DNA of 38,128 nucleotides, taken from the NCBI GenBank assembly GCA_041661585.1, contig JBAZUC010000001.1, forward strand, positions 1 to 38,128. Direction: 5' to 3'. The notes below the pieces were generated by a model, which was not told where the DNA came from, made no database searches, and saw only the letters and a program-made list of their open reading frames with translations. This DNA comes from Parcubacteria group bacterium (lineage in GTDB: Bacteria > Patescibacteriota > Minisyncoccia > Moranbacterales > UBA11712). Made by a program: the position numbers and the translations under genes. Below are positions 4,238 through 27,529 of this stretch, piece by piece. The number at the start of each line of letters is the position of its first letter. Position 1 is the stretch's first letter.

Positions 4238-5176
4238 ATGTTCGGGAACATCAATATCGCCACTATAGTCCTCACTGTCACCGGCCTTTGCCTTTTCGAA
4301 ATCGTTTCGAGCATCGACAATGCCGTCATCAACGCCGAAGTTCTTTCAACTATGTCCAAAAAATCCCGAAAATGGTTTTTGTTTTGGGGTCTTTTGTTCG
4401 CGGTGATCGTCGTCCGCGGGCTTTTGCCGTGGGTGATCGTTTGGGCGACAAACTCGTCGCTCGGACCAATCGGCGCGCTCACGGCTACTTTCAGTAATGA
4501 TCCTTCAGTCAAAGAGGCTATCGACTCCTCGGCTCCGATCCTTCTCGCCGGTGGCGGAACATTTCTCGTTTTTCTTTTTTTCCACTGGCTTTTCATTGAA
4601 CCAAAAACATATGGCCTGCGCGGAGAACGTTTTTTTCATTCTCAAGGAATTTGGTTTTTCGCGGTAGCCTCAATTTTTCTGGCAATCATTGTTTGGTCGG
4701 CATTGAAAATAAACCCGATGATGGCGTTCGGAGCGGTGATCGGCTCAACCGCCTTTTTCATCACGCACGGATTCAAACAAAACGCCGAGCAGCAAGAAAA
4801 GAAATTGACTTCCGGCAAAAGCAAATTGTCGGATATGAGCAAGATCTTGTATCTCGAAGTCATCGACACGACTTTTTCCATCGACGGAGTGCTGGGAGCC
4901 TTTGCTTTCACGCTTTCTGTTCCCTTGATCTTGATCGGCAACGGAATCGGCGCCCTTGTTTTGCGCCAGCTCACGGTCGGCAACATCGACCGAATCAAAA
5001 AATACGTTTTTCTCAAAAACGGCGCGATGTATTCCATACTTTTCCTGGGCTTGATCATGATTCTCGACAGCTTCGGCTTCCATATCCCCAGCTGGGTTTC
5101 GCCGGTCGCGACATTCGCGATCATCGGATATTTTTTCTTTCTTTCAAAAAGAGAATTGCAAGTTGCCAAGCATTAA
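4238..5176 (+). CDS. TerC/DUF475-like integral membrane protein
   Basis: Multi-pass hydrophobic profile. The N-terminal EIVSSIDNAVINAEVL is the TerC/DUF475 signature as I recall it. Confidence 0.65.
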   Translation: MFGNINIATIVLTVTGLCLFEIVSSIDNAVINAEVLSTMSKKSRKWFLFWGLLFAVIVVRGLLPWVIVWATNSSLGPIGALTATFSNDPSVKEAIDSSAPILLAGGGTFLVFLFFHWLFIEPKTYGLRGERFFHSQGIWFFAVASIFLAIIVWSALKINPMMAFGAVIGSTAFFITHGFKQNAEQQEKKLTSGKSKLSDMSKILYLEVIDTTFSIDGVLGAFAFTLSVPLILIGNGIGALVLRQLTVGNIDRIKKYVFLKNGAMYSILFLGLIMILDSFGFHIPSWVSPVATFAIIGYFFFLSKRELQVAKH

Positions 5177-21961: not shown

Positions 21962-22657
21962 TTATAGTTTATCCCTTTTTAAAAACTTATCATATTCGCG
22001 GGATTGCTTTATTTTTTTTGGCTTCTTAACTGTTGGCTGTTTTTTATTAAACTTTATATTGCTACAAAGAGCTCTCAGGTCTTTATACAAAATTTCCTCT
22101 TTTCGACTCAATAATCGACGAATTAGTTCTTCCCATTCCTCACTTGTTCTAATTGTCCTTGATTCTATAGGATTTGAAGTTGGCCTTATATACAGGCCAC
22201 CTTTTTTGAGACGACAACGACGATCCTGTGATTTGAAATCGCAAGTAGAAACCAACGGCATTACTCCCTGTGATTCATAAACCCGCATTACTACAAATTT
22301 TGTATTTCTATCATCTATTAAAAGAGTATCGCCGTATACCTCAAATTTTAATTTTTGATTCGCCTTTTCGTTAAAAAAGCGACCAATATCGTCTTCGTTG
22401 TCAAAAGTATTATATTGTTTCGTCGTTAGCCCTTTTCTCTCAAATTGAATTCCATTTGAACGATCTCGTTTTTGAGAAATGCCGAGGATTATAAATCCGC
22501 CATTTGTCAGATTGGAAAGCGCGAATGTAGCTTTGGCGATTTCAAATTTTTTCTTTTTCTGATTATTACTCCAAGCCATAGGTGGCTTAAATTCCCATCT
22601 TTTTTCTTCCGTTCCATATTGGATATAGTTTTTCATTTCATCAGTTAATGACCTCAT
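21962..22657 (-). CDS. AlbA_2/Schlafen-like nucleic-acid-binding domain protein with a basic C-terminal tail
   Basis: EEKRWEFKPP...EIAKATFALSNLTNGGFIILGIS...KFVVMRVYESQGVMPLVS...GGLYIRPTSNPIESR matches the AlbA_2 pattern (E.K .. i.k.i.AfaNt.GG.l.iGv .. v..i.V..s..P .. yiR.gs.t). The tail is KKQPTVKKPKKIKQ. Confidence 0.65.
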   Translation of the reverse strand: MRSLTDEMKNYIQYGTEEKRWEFKPPMAWSNNQKKKKFEIAKATFALSNLTNGGFIILGISQKRDRSNGIQFERKGLTTKQYNTFDNEDDIGRFFNEKANQKLKFEVYGDTLLIDDRNTKFVVMRVYESQGVMPLVSTCDFKSQDRRCRLKKGGLYIRPTSNPIESRTIRTSEEWEELIRRLLSRKEEILYKDLRALCSNIKFNKKQPTVKKPKKIKQSREYDKFLKRDKL

Positions 22658-22763
22658 AAAATATTTTGGCTTTCAAAAATATATTTTATTTTTACTTCTA
22701 TTTTCTCCATGATTTTCTTTTGATCTCCTAGCGAAGGCAGGGGGAATTTCTATCTTTTTAAGT

Positions 22764-23168
22764 TTAGTGAATTAAAAAACTTTCGATTTTTCTCATGGAA
22801 TTTTCTAAATTTCTTTCAATTTCATGCTCCCATATTCTCAAAACTTTCCAGCCTTCTTTTCTTAATTTCGCCCTATTGATTTTATCTCTTTTTATATTGC
22901 CCTCAATTTTTGTAGTCCAGTATTTTTTTGGCAAGCGCTTTTTATTTTTTGAAAAATTATATCCATGCCAGAAGTCTCCGTCTATAAATATCGCCGTTTT
23001 CTTTCGCGGCAATGCTATATCCGGATTTCCAGCAATCTTATTATAATGCCTTTGAAAGTGGATGCCCCTTTTTCTCAGTTCTCGAAATACAATTTTCTCG
23101 ATAGCTGTATTTTTTGAACGGATTTTTGACATTATCTCGCTCCTCTTTTTCTTTGTAAAAACATCCAT
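22764..23168 (-). CDS. vsr: Very-short-patch repair endonuclease (Vsr) homolog
   Basis: KKRSEIMSKIRSKNTAIEKIVFRELRKRG, GNPDIALPRKKTAIFIDGDFWHG, YWTTKIEGNIKRDK, GWKVLRIWEHEI. Confidence 0.85.
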   Translation of the reverse strand: MDVFTKKKRSEIMSKIRSKNTAIEKIVFRELRKRGIHFQRHYNKIAGNPDIALPRKKTAIFIDGDFWHGYNFSKNKKRLPKKYWTTKIEGNIKRDKINRAKLRKEGWKVLRIWEHEIERNLENSMRKIESFLIH

Positions 23169-23189
23169 GCGGCTGTGGATAACTCTATT

Positions 23190-23218
23190 TTGCTAGTTCG
23201 GTATTTATTCGGTATAAT
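23190..23218 (+). promoter_or_regulatory. Promoter of the LexA-methyltransferase gene (TTGCTA-N17-TATAAT), overlapped by the direct repeat TTCGGTAT-tta-TTCGGTAT
   Basis: TTGCTA at 23190-23195 and TATAAT at 23213-23218. Repeats at 23197-23204 and 23208-23215. Confidence 0.55.
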
Positions 23219-23259
23219 GTAACTAAATTATAATAAAATAAAAAAACAAAGTCAAATAT

Positions 23260-24822
23260 ATGGCAACTCTCACAAAGAGGCAAAAGCAAATATTCGAATT
23301 CATTAAATCATTCATAAGAAGGCATGGAATGTCCCCCACTATACGAGAGATAAAAAAAGCGACCGGGCTTTCCGCTCCATCGACTATCCATCAGCACATA
23401 AACGCGCTTGCTGAAAAAGGATTCATTGAAAAAAACGGGAGTTCATCGAGAGGCATAGAAATCAAAAAGGACAAAGGCGCCGATACGCTGGCTGAAATTT
23501 ATCTACTTGGGACAATAGCAGCCGGCCAGCCGATAGAAGCCGTTGAAGTTTTCACTGAAACAATTGCGATTCCGAGAAGCGACATCGACAGGCACGGAGA
23601 ATTGTATGCGTTGCGAGTACAGGGAGACAGCATGATTGAAGAGGGAATATTCGACGGAGATATTGTTGTTATAAAAAAACAATCAGCGGCAGAAAACGGA
23701 CAGACCGTTGTTGCGATAATCGATGACAACGAGGCGACGCTAAAAAAGCTATACAGGGAAAAGAACCGCCTAAGATTGCAACCCGCAAACCAAGCACTCC
23801 TCCCGCTCTACAGAAAGGAGGTTGAAATAAAGGGCGTCGTAATCAGAATTATAAGAAATTTTGAAAGCACGGAGAATAAGCGCATTAGAACGCTTGATCT
23901 TTTTGCCGGGGTTGGCGGCATACGCTTGGGCTTTGAGAAAGCAGGCTTTGAAACTGTCTTCGCCAATGACTTCGACCGGCAATGCAAAACTACTTATGAC
24001 TTGAATTTCAAGACCTCCAAACTTGTATCGGAAGACATCACTAAAGTTGGAATTGGCGATCTGCCTGACTTTGACTTTCTTCTGGCAGGCTTTCCTTGCC
24101 AGCCATTTTCTATTGCCGGATACAGGCAAGGCTTCAAGGATGAAGGGGGGCGCGGAAATTTATTCTTTACAATTGCGAGCATTATTGAAGCGAGAAATCC
24201 TGCCGGCTTCCTGCTCGAAAATGTCAAGAACTTAAAGGGCCACGACGGGGGCAAAACTTTTAAAATAATTACAGAAACTCTGAAAAGTTTGGGCTACCAT
24301 ATGAAATCCAAGGTATTAAACAGCATGGATTATGGAAATATTCCGCAAAACAGAGAAAGACTGTATATAGCAGGATTTAAAAATGAAAACTGCTTGGATA
24401 AATTTGAATTTCCTGCTCCGCAAAAATTGAAAATAAAAGTTGCAGATTTGCTGGAAAAAAATGTCCCAGAAAAATATTATTATAATGGAAAGCCTCTTTA
24501 TGAAAAACTTAAGAACTTTATAAAAGAAGGAGGAAAAGTTTATCAATGGAGGAGGCAATATGTCAGAGAAAATAAGAAGGGCGTATGCCCTACTTTAACA
24601 GCTAATATGGGAATGGGCGGCCACAATGTTCCAATCATTAAAGACAAAAAAGGAATCAGAAAACTGACTCCTCTTGAATGCTTCAGACTTCAAGGATTCC
24701 CGGAAGATTTCGCGCTTCCAAAAAATTTAGCTGACTCTGCATTATACAAGCAGGCTGGAAATTCAGTAAGCGTGCCTGTTATTGAAGCCGTAGCGAAGCA
24801 AATGATGAAGGCGATATCCTAG
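23260..24822 (+). CDS. Fusion protein: full-length LexA (wHTH + S24 autopeptidase) joined to a complete C5 cytosine DNA methyltransferase
   Basis: LexA part: LTKRQKQIFEFIKSFIRRHGMSPTIREIKKATGLSAPSTIHQHINALAEKGFIEK, cleavage-site GTIAAGQPI (A88-G89), GDSM (S124), EATLKKL (K162), GVVIRIIRNF. MTase part from ~aa 208: DLFAGVGGIRLGF (motif I), GFPCQPFS (IV, Cys280 at nt 24097-24099), LLENVKNL (VI), QNRERLYIAGF (VIII), RKLTPLECFRLQGFP, QAGNSVSVPV (X). Confidence 0.9.
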   Translation: MATLTKRQKQIFEFIKSFIRRHGMSPTIREIKKATGLSAPSTIHQHINALAEKGFIEKNGSSSRGIEIKKDKGADTLAEIYLLGTIAAGQPIEAVEVFTETIAIPRSDIDRHGELYALRVQGDSMIEEGIFDGDIVVIKKQSAAENGQTVVAIIDDNEATLKKLYREKNRLRLQPANQALLPLYRKEVEIKGVVIRIIRNFESTENKRIRTLDLFAGVGGIRLGFEKAGFETVFANDFDRQCKTTYDLNFKTSKLVSEDITKVGIGDLPDFDFLLAGFPCQPFSIAGYRQGFKDEGGRGNLFFTIASIIEARNPAGFLLENVKNLKGHDGGKTFKIITETLKSLGYHMKSKVLNSMDYGNIPQNRERLYIAGFKNENCLDKFEFPAPQKLKIKVADLLEKNVPEKYYYNGKPLYEKLKNFIKEGGKVYQWRRQYVRENKKGVCPTLTANMGMGGHNVPIIKDKKGIRKLTPLECFRLQGFPEDFALPKNLADSALYKQAGNSVSVPVIEAVAKQMMKAIS

Positions 24823-24832
24823 CCTCTGCGCT

Positions 24833-25414
24833 TTATACCTTGCAGTTTTCTTTAATTGGTTTTAATTTATTCCGTTCAATAATCTCCCCCTTAAAGTCAA
24901 TTCTCGGTCTTCTTTTTTGATCTTGCTGGTCCGATAATCTTTCATCCTTATTGACGCTGGATGTATAAATATATTTATCTGAAATTTTATATATATCAAA
25001 GGTTCCGTCCACCTCTCCGTTTCTAAAGAAATCCATCCAGTACAATTCGTCTTCATCCCAAAAAGATCTAGGGCCAAATGACGTAGGTCCGCGACTGCTT
25101 GAAGCTTTAATTTGCTGCCTTTTACTGCTTTTTAAATCAATTGTATCGAATGACCCCTTAGTGCCATGCGCTTTCAAAACTCTTACTGAACCCATCTCAA
25201 GGCAAAACAAGCTTTCGGTCAGCCCTTCGGGTATGTTAATGCCTCTTGCGCCAAAACTTCTTAATAGCTTGCTTAGCTTAATCCAGAGGTGAAATATTAT
25301 CTTCAGTTTGCGCCTATCTGATTTTAATATTTTTAAAATGTCCAATCTAACATCTTTTCCAGCTATTTTAATAATAATCTTCCCTTTTCTCATTTTCTTT
25401 ATTTTTTTAATCAA
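24833..25414 (-). CDS. Putative small type II restriction endonuclease, convergent partner of the methyltransferase
   Basis: The call rests mainly on context: convergent with the MTase, 10 nt apart, with vsr nearby. There is a possible PD-(D/E)xK-like SFDTID...RQQIKAS. I have a vague recollection of similarity to the Bsp6I family but cannot verify it. Confidence 0.4.
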   Translation of the reverse strand: MIKKIKKMRKGKIIIKIAGKDVRLDILKILKSDRRKLKIIFHLWIKLSKLLRSFGARGINIPEGLTESLFCLEMGSVRVLKAHGTKGSFDTIDLKSSKRQQIKASSSRGPTSFGPRSFWDEDELYWMDFFRNGEVDGTFDIYKISDKYIYTSSVNKDERLSDQQDQKRRPRIDFKGEIIERNKLKPIKENCKV

Positions 25415-25420
25415 TTATTT

Positions 25421-25600
25421 CTATTTACTCCTATAATCCCTAATCACCATTCCGCCTTTAATCCTCTTCACAACCACTCGCTGTTTTTCTTTCCATTTCA
25501 ATTCCCGTACGAGTTCAATCGGCAAGGTGAGTCCGATAGATCTCTTGCCGATCTTCGTCAGTTTGCGGATGCCTCTTTCCTCGGCTTTTTTGTTGGCCAT
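25421..25600 (-). CDS. AbrB/MazE/SpoVT-fold small DNA-binding protein (59 aa), 6 nt upstream of the REase-like gene
   Basis: MANKKAEERGIRKLTKIGKRSIGLTLPIELVRELKWKEKQRVVVKRIKGGMVIRD is a looped-hinge-helix pattern. I used the internal ATG at 25600 because the longer 144-aa ORF overlaps tspO. Confidence 0.7.
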   Translation of the reverse strand: MANKKAEERGIRKLTKIGKRSIGLTLPIELVRELKWKEKQRVVVKRIKGGMVIRDYRSK

Positions 25601-25617: not shown

Positions 25618-25636
25618 TTACGTAATTAATTACGTA
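25618..25636. promoter_or_regulatory. Operator-like repeat TTACGTA-N5-TTACGTA directly upstream of the AbrB-like gene
   Basis: TTACGTA at 25618-25624 and 25630-25636 (12-nt period), 18-36 nt upstream of the ATG at 25600. The first copy is part of the palindrome aattacgtaatt. Confidence 0.5.
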
Positions 25637-27269: not shown

Positions 27270-27529
27270 AGATATATTAATTAATTTGTTATTTATAATT
27301 TGTTGTCTATTATTAAGTTTTTAGTTTCTGGGGATAAGTGCGTTTTGTTTATATAACTATTGGATGATATGGTTGGCGCAAAATGTGGATAACGGGAGAA
27401 AGAAGGGTGAGGATAAGGGGGATAAAAAAATATCTTTTTTGATTTGTTTTTTTGTCCGAATATTATCCACTGAAAAATTAATATTTAGGAGATGGGTTAT
27501 TGATAATTTAAGCCCAGCTTGTCAACAAC
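27270..27529. other. Candidate oriC: AT-rich unwinding region plus a cluster of DnaA boxes between dnaA and dnaN
   Basis: Boxes relative to TTATCCACA: 27329-27337 tggggataa, 27384-27392 tgtggataa (perfect), 27408-27416 tgaggataa, 27417-27425 gggggataa, 27463-27471 ttatccact. A very AT-rich tract lies at 27270-27328. Confidence 0.6.

Follow-up and report, generated by a model that had tools for sequence, protein, structure and literature searches.

In restriction-modification (R-M) systems, methylation has to stay ahead of restriction, and it is an open question how those of Type II deal with DNA damage and repair synthesis. In the Ecl18kI, SsoII and EcoRII systems, the DNA methyltransferase (MTase) is fused to a repressor domain that controls the MTase's own promoter (PMC12707154). 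Type I systems alleviate restriction after DNA damage through ClpXP proteolysis of HsdR, and the 2025 R-M review that covers these cases never mentions LexA and offers no comparable damage mechanism for Type II (PMC12707154). Here we describe a C5 cytosine MTase whose N-terminal part is a complete, apparently cleavable LexA repressor. It is encoded in a 38,128-nt stretch of DNA, hereafter the window, from a Parcubacteria group bacterium (GCA_041661585.1, contig JBAZUC010000001.1, positions 1–38,128 of the forward strand). From comparative sequence analysis we favour, with modest confidence, the view that this protein is the autorepressed, damage-derepressible LexA-MTase of a Type II R-M module.

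The arrangement resembles Ecl18kI, SsoII and EcoRII in that a C5 MTase carries an N-terminal DNA-binding domain on a flexible linker, which represses MTase synthesis (a prediction in the present case), and in that expression is coupled to the amount of MTase protein. The control design nevertheless differs from that of these three systems. Whereas SsoII and Ecl18kI use a 70-aa helix-turn-helix (HTH) region, the present protein has a full 200-aa LexA, that is, a winged HTH (wHTH) and an S24 peptidase domain with an intact cleavage site, and is predicted to be severable by DNA damage. Judged from the Pfam and NCBIfam matches of the fusion alone, the two kinds of DNA-binding part belong to different fold families. 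The putative operator is also different, being a direct repeat with an 11-bp period inside the −35/−10 spacer. Finally, SsoII and Ecl18kI control overlapping, divergent promoters of the M and R genes, whereas the restriction endonuclease (REase) gene of the window is convergent and, with no operator found there, its promoter is apparently not acted upon.

Compared with canonical LexA (TIGR00498), the protein shares the full-length alignment, the wHTH, the Ala-Gly site, the Ser/Lys pair and an operator at its own promoter, but it differs in its 320-aa C-terminal enzyme, its R-M setting and, within the DNA sampled, the lack of any detectable regulon other than its own promoter. The LexA operator of Caulobacter, the SOS box GTTC-N7-GTTC, is built of two direct repeats with a period of 11 bp (PMC9578287). 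The site in the window has the same period and reads GTTC-GGTATTT-ATTC, although the two lie in different phyla and the extended half-site, putatively TTCGGT here, is another one. Timing or safety control of R-M genes is common to the present system, to the C-protein systems of PvuII type and to Type I alleviation. C proteins, however, are small, separate HTH activators or repressors of the REase, whereas the route proposed here is the production of more MTase through cleavage of a fused repressor.

The fusion gene and the parts of its product are located as follows.

23260–24822, plus strand: LexA-C5 MTase fusion gene, a single uninterrupted 520-aa frame
23260–23454, plus strand: LexA wHTH DNA-binding domain, aa 1–65 (PF01726 LexA_DNA_bind, 2.6e-21)
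23377–23415, plus strand: recognition helix, aa 40–52 (helix 40–52 of the AlphaFold2 model; co-varying residues 43, 45 and 46)
23503–23844, plus strand: Peptidase S24 domain, aa 82–195 (PF00717, 1.7e-29)
23521–23526, plus strand: Ala88-Gly89 autocleavage site (GCC GGC), aligned with VAAGEP of E. coli LexA
23629–23631, plus strand: Ser124 (AGC) of the S24 catalytic dyad
23743–23745, plus strand: Lys162 (AAA) of the S24 catalytic dyad
23860–23895, plus strand: variable linker between S24 and MTase domains, aa 201–212, the least conserved segment, of varying length
23884–24807, plus strand: C5 cytosine DNA methyltransferase domain, aa 209–516 (PF00145 DNA_methylase, 3.9e-91, model 1–323 of 324)
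24097–24099, plus strand: catalytic Cys280 (TGC) of MTase motif IV (PCQ)
within 23884–24807, plus strand: further MTase motifs, namely I (aa 213–220), ENV (320–322), QNRER (363–367) and X (500–507)
24385–24669, plus strand: target recognition domain (TRD), aa ~376–470, between motifs VIII and IX

Both halves of the protein are complete, as a preliminary description of the window had claimed, with near-full matches to Pfam and NCBIfam models. The NCBIfam lexA equivalog model (TIGR00498) aligns with residues 1–201 over positions 1–202 of 203, scoring 197.7 bits against a cutoff of 110.95, and the dcm model (TIGR00675) matches residues 212–515; the protein also matches the PADLOC MTase_II model at 6.3e-124. 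Residues 1–201 align end to end with residues 1–199 of E. coli LexA (1jhh/3jso), the wHTH with its N-terminal domain (1lea/1jhh), and the coordinates given earlier for A88-G89, S124 and K162 agree with the sequence and are in register with A84-G85, S119 and K156 of the E. coli protein. The alignment with T. maritima LexA (3k2z; E = 4e-33) likewise places the cleavage site, Ser and Lys in register.

Conservation was counted over 81 aligned fusion sequences and compared with a second alignment of 56 sequences. Ala88, Ser124 and Lys162 are present in 81/81 and Gly89 in 80/81, and the cleavage and Ser/Lys residues are invariant in the second alignment as well; careful alignment thus retains the autocleavage residues whose possible loss had been raised in the preliminary description. 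On the MTase side, motif I, the PCQ cysteine, ENV, QNRER and GNSV are conserved at catalytic positions in all 81, and the 56 sequences agree. The hinge around the cleavage site, by contrast, is only 44–47% identical. Least conserved of all is the linker at residues 201–212 (35% identity), the length of which varies yet always keeps the frame. The linker had been put at about eight residues, which holds for the distance to the start of the Pfam MTase domain (8) but not for that from the LexA end to motif I, where 11 residues intervene (202–212). An AlphaFold2 model built on the 56-sequence alignment has a mean pLDDT of 79 and shows three folded domains joined by low-confidence segments. Confidence is low at 72–74 and 94–97, flanking the cleavage site in the hinge region, and pLDDT falls below 50 at residues 201–206, within the linker between S24 and MTase domains. 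Because no internal start codon was noticed in the linker (201–212), the MTase appears to be made only as a fusion.

The junction itself contains a terminator-like hairpin with a T-run (23877–23896), positioned exactly where LexA passes into the MTase. As a terminator that would yield LexA alone, this element was rejected: over 81 genes the hairpin shows no conservation (mean z = +0.55), and the T-run is simply what the DLFAG codons spell, so hairpin and T-run are best taken as a chance match.

The fusion gene is real and does not arise from an assembly error. Homologues were drawn from 90%-identity clusters of a collection of 5.8 billion proteins (NCBI, JGI, ENA and Logan assemblies), from a scan of one genome per GTDB species, and from 80 fetched genome loci with the fusion gene (L001–L080), in which open reading frames (ORFs) were called and neighbours clustered; the data are metagenome-assembled genomes (MAGs), metagenomes and automatic gene calls throughout. 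More than 120 such clusters carry the fusion; the 120 listed all have the same three domains at 98–100% coverage and 68–93% identity, on contigs that are independent of one another and reach 428 kb in length. In the GTDB scan, the fusion was found in the genomes of at least 530 species. That two neighbouring genes were joined by misassembly or frameshift would be consistent with the truncated database fragments noted on short contigs, but we found no real support for it; the same in-frame junction recurs on independent assemblies, in all 120 listed clusters and in 80/80 loci, with a linker that varies but stays in frame. We therefore reject an artefact, to which we give practically no chance, and the single 520-aa frame described earlier is a genuine in-frame fusion.

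The 80 loci, like every other carrier of the fusion with a named source, belong to the Candidate Phyla Radiation (CPR)/Patescibacteria, among them Parcu-, Moran-, Uhr-, Magasanik-, Falkow-, Nomura- and Giovannonibacteria and others, and include one complete 742-kb chromosome. The fusion is thus kept in hundreds of CPR species despite their tiny genomes and epibiotic lifestyle. In part this tells against the novelty first claimed for the architecture, which is common in Patescibacteria and already annotated automatically, under names that hide the fusion: source records give either ‘transcriptional repressor LexA’ or ‘DNA (cytosine-5)-methyltransferase 1’ and in no case the two together. Where the former is used the enzyme disappears from view, and SOS-regulon reconstructions in CPR bacteria may count R-M genes. 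Clustering at 50% identity leaves one full-length representative, so the family is tight, as would fit a single origin. A phage origin was looked for in one scan of viral contigs, which returned only MTase relatives without LexA. One of these, on an IMG/VR viral contig (L083, 8001–8927), is 64% identical to residues 210–520, and phages may carry the same specificity for anti-restriction. The taxon labels of many ‘binchicken’ MAGs in the sample (Saccharibacteria, Bdellovibrionales and Gammaproteobacteria; L003, L005, L010 and others) seem unreliable, as the fusion gene and its flanks in these MAGs resemble CPR lineages other than those labelled.

Upstream of the fusion gene, three elements make up a compact promoter cassette.

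23174–23183, plus strand: TGTGGATAAC, a perfect DnaA-box sequence, 7 nt upstream of the −35 element
23190–23218, plus strand: fusion promoter, −35 TTGCTA (23190–23195), 17-nt spacer and −10 TATAAT (23213–23218), 10/12 in a consensus scan
23197–23213, plus strand: putative LexA operator TTCGGT-ATTTA-TTCGGT, a direct repeat of 11-bp period that fills the spacer and overlaps the −10 element

The 130 nt upstream of the gene were compared across the 80 loci. The layout TTGnnn-N17-TATAAT is common to them, and a TTCGG-type repeat occupies the promoter in 72/80. In another seven, both half-sites are changed and TTTCTA-N5-TTTCTA stands at the same place. The proteins encoded in these seven loci differ correspondingly in the recognition helix, where S-T-[IV]-H-[EQ]-H becomes S-T-A-H-[YH]-Y (I/V43A, E/Q45Y/H, H46Y). 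Between the two operator-type groups, divergence is selective for the wHTH, where identity is 0.47, compared with 0.69 in the S24 domain and 0.77 in the MTase. An unfused LexA relative (P0345) pairs the helix STAHFH with a TTTCTA-N5-TTTCTA operator, repeating the correspondence independently. This co-variation of operator type with helix residues 43, 45 and 46 ties the LexA wHTH to the repeat. No palindromic SOS box of the Gram-positive type (CGAAC-N4-GTTCG) was seen by eye upstream of the fusion, where the element is a direct repeat.

The operator is close to exclusive to these promoters. The window has no second exact copy of its motif. Across 1.16 Mb of loci, 68 exact copies lie at the fusion's own promoters and two elsewhere, against a chance expectation of 1.15. 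A position weight matrix (PWM) scan of 1.43 Mb of related DNA, which exceeds one CPR genome equivalent but consists of loci rather than whole genomes, gave strong extra matches only before other genes of the same LexA clade. Since the operator is confined to own or lexA-clade promoters, autoregulation by LexA of its own promoter is the function that this distribution supports. By the same token, tethering of the MTase by LexA to many SOS boxes, as suggested earlier, found no support in the window or the 1.43 Mb. A wider operator regulon, for example of repair genes, was not seen in this DNA, in which no whole genome was scanned.

The DnaA box is a second constant of the cassette. Its sequence, TGTGGATAA, is the reverse complement of the DnaA-box consensus TTATCCACA, and among the 80 related promoters the exact 9-mer is found in 44 and a version with at most one mismatch in 55. 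It lies 18–23 nt (mostly 20–22 nt) upstream of the operator and is about 170-fold denser at these promoters than in the rest of the loci. It is also present at the lexA promoters of L081, L082, L089 and L100. Where the operator type switches (L089, L049 and L077), the box is unchanged, and a factor other than the wHTH therefore presumably reads it. These observations suggest a DnaA input into the lexA/MTase promoter, one idea being that the box links MTase supply to replication initiation. The only other exact DnaA box in the window belongs to a cluster of near matches between dnaA and dnaN, where one exact and three one-mismatch boxes lie within 27329–27471; this intergenic cluster probably marks oriC. 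About 1.3 kb separates the end of the R-M module from dnaN.

The fusion gene is flanked by further R-M genes.

22764–23168, minus strand: vsr, very-short-patch T:G mismatch endonuclease (PF03852, 3.7e-24; TIGR00632, 1.9e-31), divergent from the fusion
23227–23255, minus strand: promoter-like TTGACT-N17-TATAAT (11/12 in a consensus scan) in the 5′ leader of the fusion, candidate vsr promoter
24833–25414, minus strand: Bsp6I-like Type II REase (PF09504 RE_Bsp6I, 4.4e-12; PADLOC REase_II, 2.1e-19), convergent with the fusion
25421–25600, minus strand: small 59-aa ORF of AbrB/MazE fold (PF04014, 3.6e-06, 27.3 bits against a cutoff of 24.7), directly upstream of the REase
25619–25636: perfect 18-bp palindrome TACGTAATTAATTACGTA, 18 nt upstream of the AbrB-like ORF, read from the sequence

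These matches bear out a divergent vsr and a convergent REase, as proposed at the outset. About 11 of the 80 loci have a vsr homologue, always divergent and 91–113 nt upstream. In the window, a vsr transcript from the promoter-like element at 23227–23255 would cross the LexA operator, so vsr might be co-repressed by LexA. The true start of the REase is likely the ATG at 25393, because homologues align from query residue 21–26 onward. The AbrB-like ORF is a candidate controller of the REase, with the palindrome TACGTAATTAATTACGTA as its candidate operator, and may represent a non-canonical R-M controller: in 21 other loci the place immediately before the REase is taken by a C-protein-like gene (HTH_3), and the window has the AbrB/MazE-fold ORF there instead. 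AbrB-like homologues also precede the REase in L001 (directly, before another REase family) and in L003 (beyond a C protein).

Of the 78 loci that reach far enough downstream, 77 have a convergent-strand gene after the fusion, 10–82 nt past the stop codon where measured. At least eight clusters, unrelated to one another, make up this set of genes. The largest, c1, comprises the Bsp6I-like REase of the window and is found in 29/80 loci; c3 is a 150-aa PD-(D/E)XK protein (PDDEXK_5; 10 loci), c8 an NgoFVII-like REase (7 loci), and c9 and c11 match PADLOC REase_II (6 and 5 loci), while c4, c7 and c12 are without a family match (9, 8 and 3 loci). Nuclease or REase signatures are therefore seen in five of the eight (c1, c3, c8, c9 and c11). 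On this comparison, the pattern is one of repeated non-orthologous REase replacement beside one constant MTase, and it relates the module to two described R-M systems, Bsp6I through the REase of the window and NgoFVII through the c8 neighbours.

We considered whether the TRD varies with the REase family and rejected this, as TRD identity is 0.80–0.81 whether the neighbouring families are the same or different, which indicates one specificity. Bsp6I recognises GCNGC (PMC2790894) and NgoFVII recognises GCSGC (PMC4081073). In the loci and window together, GCNGC occurs 1525 times against 2540 expected (observed/expected 0.60) and is the most depleted of the 16 XYNY′X′ palindromes, in every nuclease class. 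The sites of these two enzymes, the constant TRD and the depletion together make GCNGC the probable target of the MTase. Nothing on specificity could be learned from the source names of the nearest MTase relatives that lack LexA. Vsr aside, the upstream flanks show no relationship among the 80 loci, and 10 loci have large serine recombinases in the vicinity, as expected of a mobile module.

The LexA-C5 fusion first noted turns out to be one form of a wider phenomenon. The same LexA module, at 53–67% identity, is fused to three other MTase classes. In P0266 it is joined to a D12-class N6-adenine MTase, in P0243 to an Eco57I-type MTase followed by a Dcm MTase and an Alw26I-family REase, and in several further entries to N6_N4 MTases; P0252 combines LexA, a C5 MTase and a partial Eco57I-type domain. 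The two promoters of such other-class fusions that were read have the same cassette with its DnaA box, one with TTCGGT repeats (L082) and one with an ATCGGG variant (L081).

Unfused relatives of the module also exist, and they too keep the cleavage residues. In a sample of nine (196–242 aa), two stand directly before an MTase gene (an N6_N4 MTase with a HinfI REase in one case, an overlapping N6_Mtase/Eco57I gene in the other), two are divergent from REase and Dcm pairs (NgoPII and HinP1I), one lies in a defence island, two precede uncharacterised ORFs and two are at contig ends. The operator was found in the lexA promoter region of all six contexts inspected, out of seven with readable flanks (P0391 being outside the six). 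In a Moranbacteria MAG (P0289), an unfused lexA occupies the slot of the window gene in the order PBP1, DciA, lexA, dnaN, dnaA, rnpA, yidC, and its LexA identity to the window (61%) is like that of DnaN, DnaA and RnpA (59–65%). In the Moranbacteria lineage, lexA may thus be a resident gene with exchanged downstream cargo, in which case the fusion could double as the cell's LexA.

In a Moranbacteria genome collinear with the window (L099–L102, 5001–6745), the unfused lexA in the dciA-dnaN slot has a 25-aa C-terminal tail and is overlapped by a 344-aa ORF with only weak similarity to Card1-like nucleases; here the same promoter cassette carries other cargo. In L096–L098 (~4840–5000), an unfused lexA of the clade is divergent from a CBASS-like SMODS and SLATT operon with an inverted operator between them, and LexA may gate this system too. 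Two fusion loci hold a second, more divergent, stand-alone lexA-like gene at most 10 kb from the fusion (L008 7432–8076 and L059 3287–3994, minus strand; one has Cys-Gly at the cleavage position), and no TTCGG operator was found upstream of either. Judged from the promoters and neighbours read, the LexA cassette of DnaA box, operator and −10 element is a wider CPR arrangement that carries MTase, REase or defence cargo, either as a downstream cistron or as an in-frame fusion.

Taken as a damage-derepressible system, the module would consist of vsr, the LexA-MTase, the Bsp6I-like REase and the small AbrB-fold controller, on the Patescibacteria chromosome. The dimeric fusion would bind TTCGGT-N5-TTCGGT and repress its own promoter, and MTase supply would thereby be held at a set point. 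Filaments of RecA on single-stranded DNA would trigger self-cleavage at Ala88-Gly89, as expected from the complete or almost complete conservation of this site and of the Ser/Lys dyad. RecA is nearly universal, and its role as the trigger rests on that. Cleavage would free the wHTH from a dimeric S24-MTase remnant and open the promoter, and MTase would rise, both as full-length protein and as S24-MTase, giving more methylation capacity. If this is true, an MTase that is itself a cleavable SOS repressor would form a direct link between the DNA-damage response and epigenetic self-protection.

More speculatively, the result would be a damage-responsive safety loop. Damage leaves unmethylated repair tracts, to which the loop would answer with more MTase; breaks made by the module's own REase would count as damage and be corrected in the same way. 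Such a loop would be a Type II counterpart of restriction alleviation. On entry into a naive cell, expression would be MTase first, with the REase gated apart by its own small controller. A more tentative extension, which we hold to have less than an even chance, makes the whole Patescibacteria LexA clade a master switch of R-M and defence cargo, in which a closed damage loop would raise methylation and the DnaA box would tie MTase supply to replication initiation. The operator/helix code, the probable GCNGC target and the natural variants (four MTase classes, fused and unfused) make the design experimentally testable.

Several points weigh against the damage-derepressible reading. We infer binding, cleavage, methylation and every other mechanistic step, as well as the GCNGC specificity, from sequence. 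The co-variation of operator and helix goes back to few independent events, perhaps two or three TTTCTA lineages together with the ATCGGG variant of L081. Neither the exact motif nor the PWM gave an operator at the promoter of the REase or of the controller, in the window or the loci, and co-ordination with the REase is for that reason left unaccounted for. The conserved DnaA box has a role that the reading does not explain. A Walker-motif regular expression found no recA in the window or loci, a search too crude to conclude absence. If the S24-MTase remnant is degraded as E. coli LexA fragments are, cleavage could lower methylation rather than raise it. Finally, LexA-MTase fusions, of which the preliminary description was unaware of any report, and LexA-headed R-M operons have no description in the literature searched, but work on the SOS network of Patescibacteria (Sanchez-Osuna et al. 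2017) may hold the operator or such fusions.

The rival that comes closest is that the fusion serves as the cell's general SOS repressor over a genome-wide repair regulon, with the MTase as a passenger or targeted near SOS boxes. It overlaps with the damage-derepressible reading, neither strictly excluding the other. The equivalog-level match to lexA fits it, as do the unfused lexA with the same cassette between dciA and dnaN in the collinear Moranbacteria genome, whose divergence matches that of its neighbours as for a vertically inherited resident gene, and the unfused relatives that have no recognisable MTase nearby. We consider it unlikely all the same, given that the window and the 1.43 Mb hold no further operator except at lexA-clade promoters, that a nuclease gene is almost always attached, that unrelated upstream flanks and serine recombinases point to a mobile module, and that the extra lexA-like genes near two fusions are without this operator.

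The question of cleavage separates two less probable accounts. The LexA part might be a non-cleaving, dimerising DNA-binding module, in effect a larger version of the SsoII/Ecl18kI-type domain with no link to damage. Repressor-MTase fusions that work without cleavage are indeed known (PMC12707154), and the crude motif search gave no recA in the sampled DNA. Against this stand the full or nearly full conservation of A88, G89, S124 and K162 in both alignments while the hinge around them is only 44–47% identical, and the retention of the same residues in unfused relatives. LexA homologues that lost cleavage, such as that of Synechocystis, also lost the cleavage residues, and we regard a non-cleaving module as quite improbable. 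In the remaining account, cleavage does occur but with the opposite outcome: the S24-MTase remnant would be exposed to proteolysis, methylation would fall and the stable REase would kill the cell, as in suicide or abortive infection. General knowledge lends this some plausibility, since in E. coli ClpXP and Lon degrade the fragments of cleaved LexA and R-M modules cause post-segregational killing, and a LexA relative adjoins the CBASS-like SMODS/SLATT operon with the operator between. Cleavage would, however, also derepress the promoter, which should replenish the full-length protein, and vsr and the C-protein-type controllers point to tuning for host safety; suicide logic therefore seems to us a doubtful explanation, and a shade less credible than a non-cleaving LexA.

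Two observations lie further from the module. Between dciA and the R-M genes, positions 19000–23000 of the window form an island of low GC content (0.33–0.35 against ~0.45), which contains an NYN-domain gene (19347–19937), a gene for a Schlafen/AlbA_2 protein (21962–22657) and, at 20394–21134 and 21226–21957, ORFs without a family match. The island may be a defence island; PADLOC gave no match on two of its ORFs. Near one LexA-MTase locus (L017, 3051–5147, minus strand), a 698-aa protein has a C-terminal S24 domain with an intact Ser/Lys region, preceded by a long N-terminal part that, judged by eye from the sequence, is P-loop NTPase-like.

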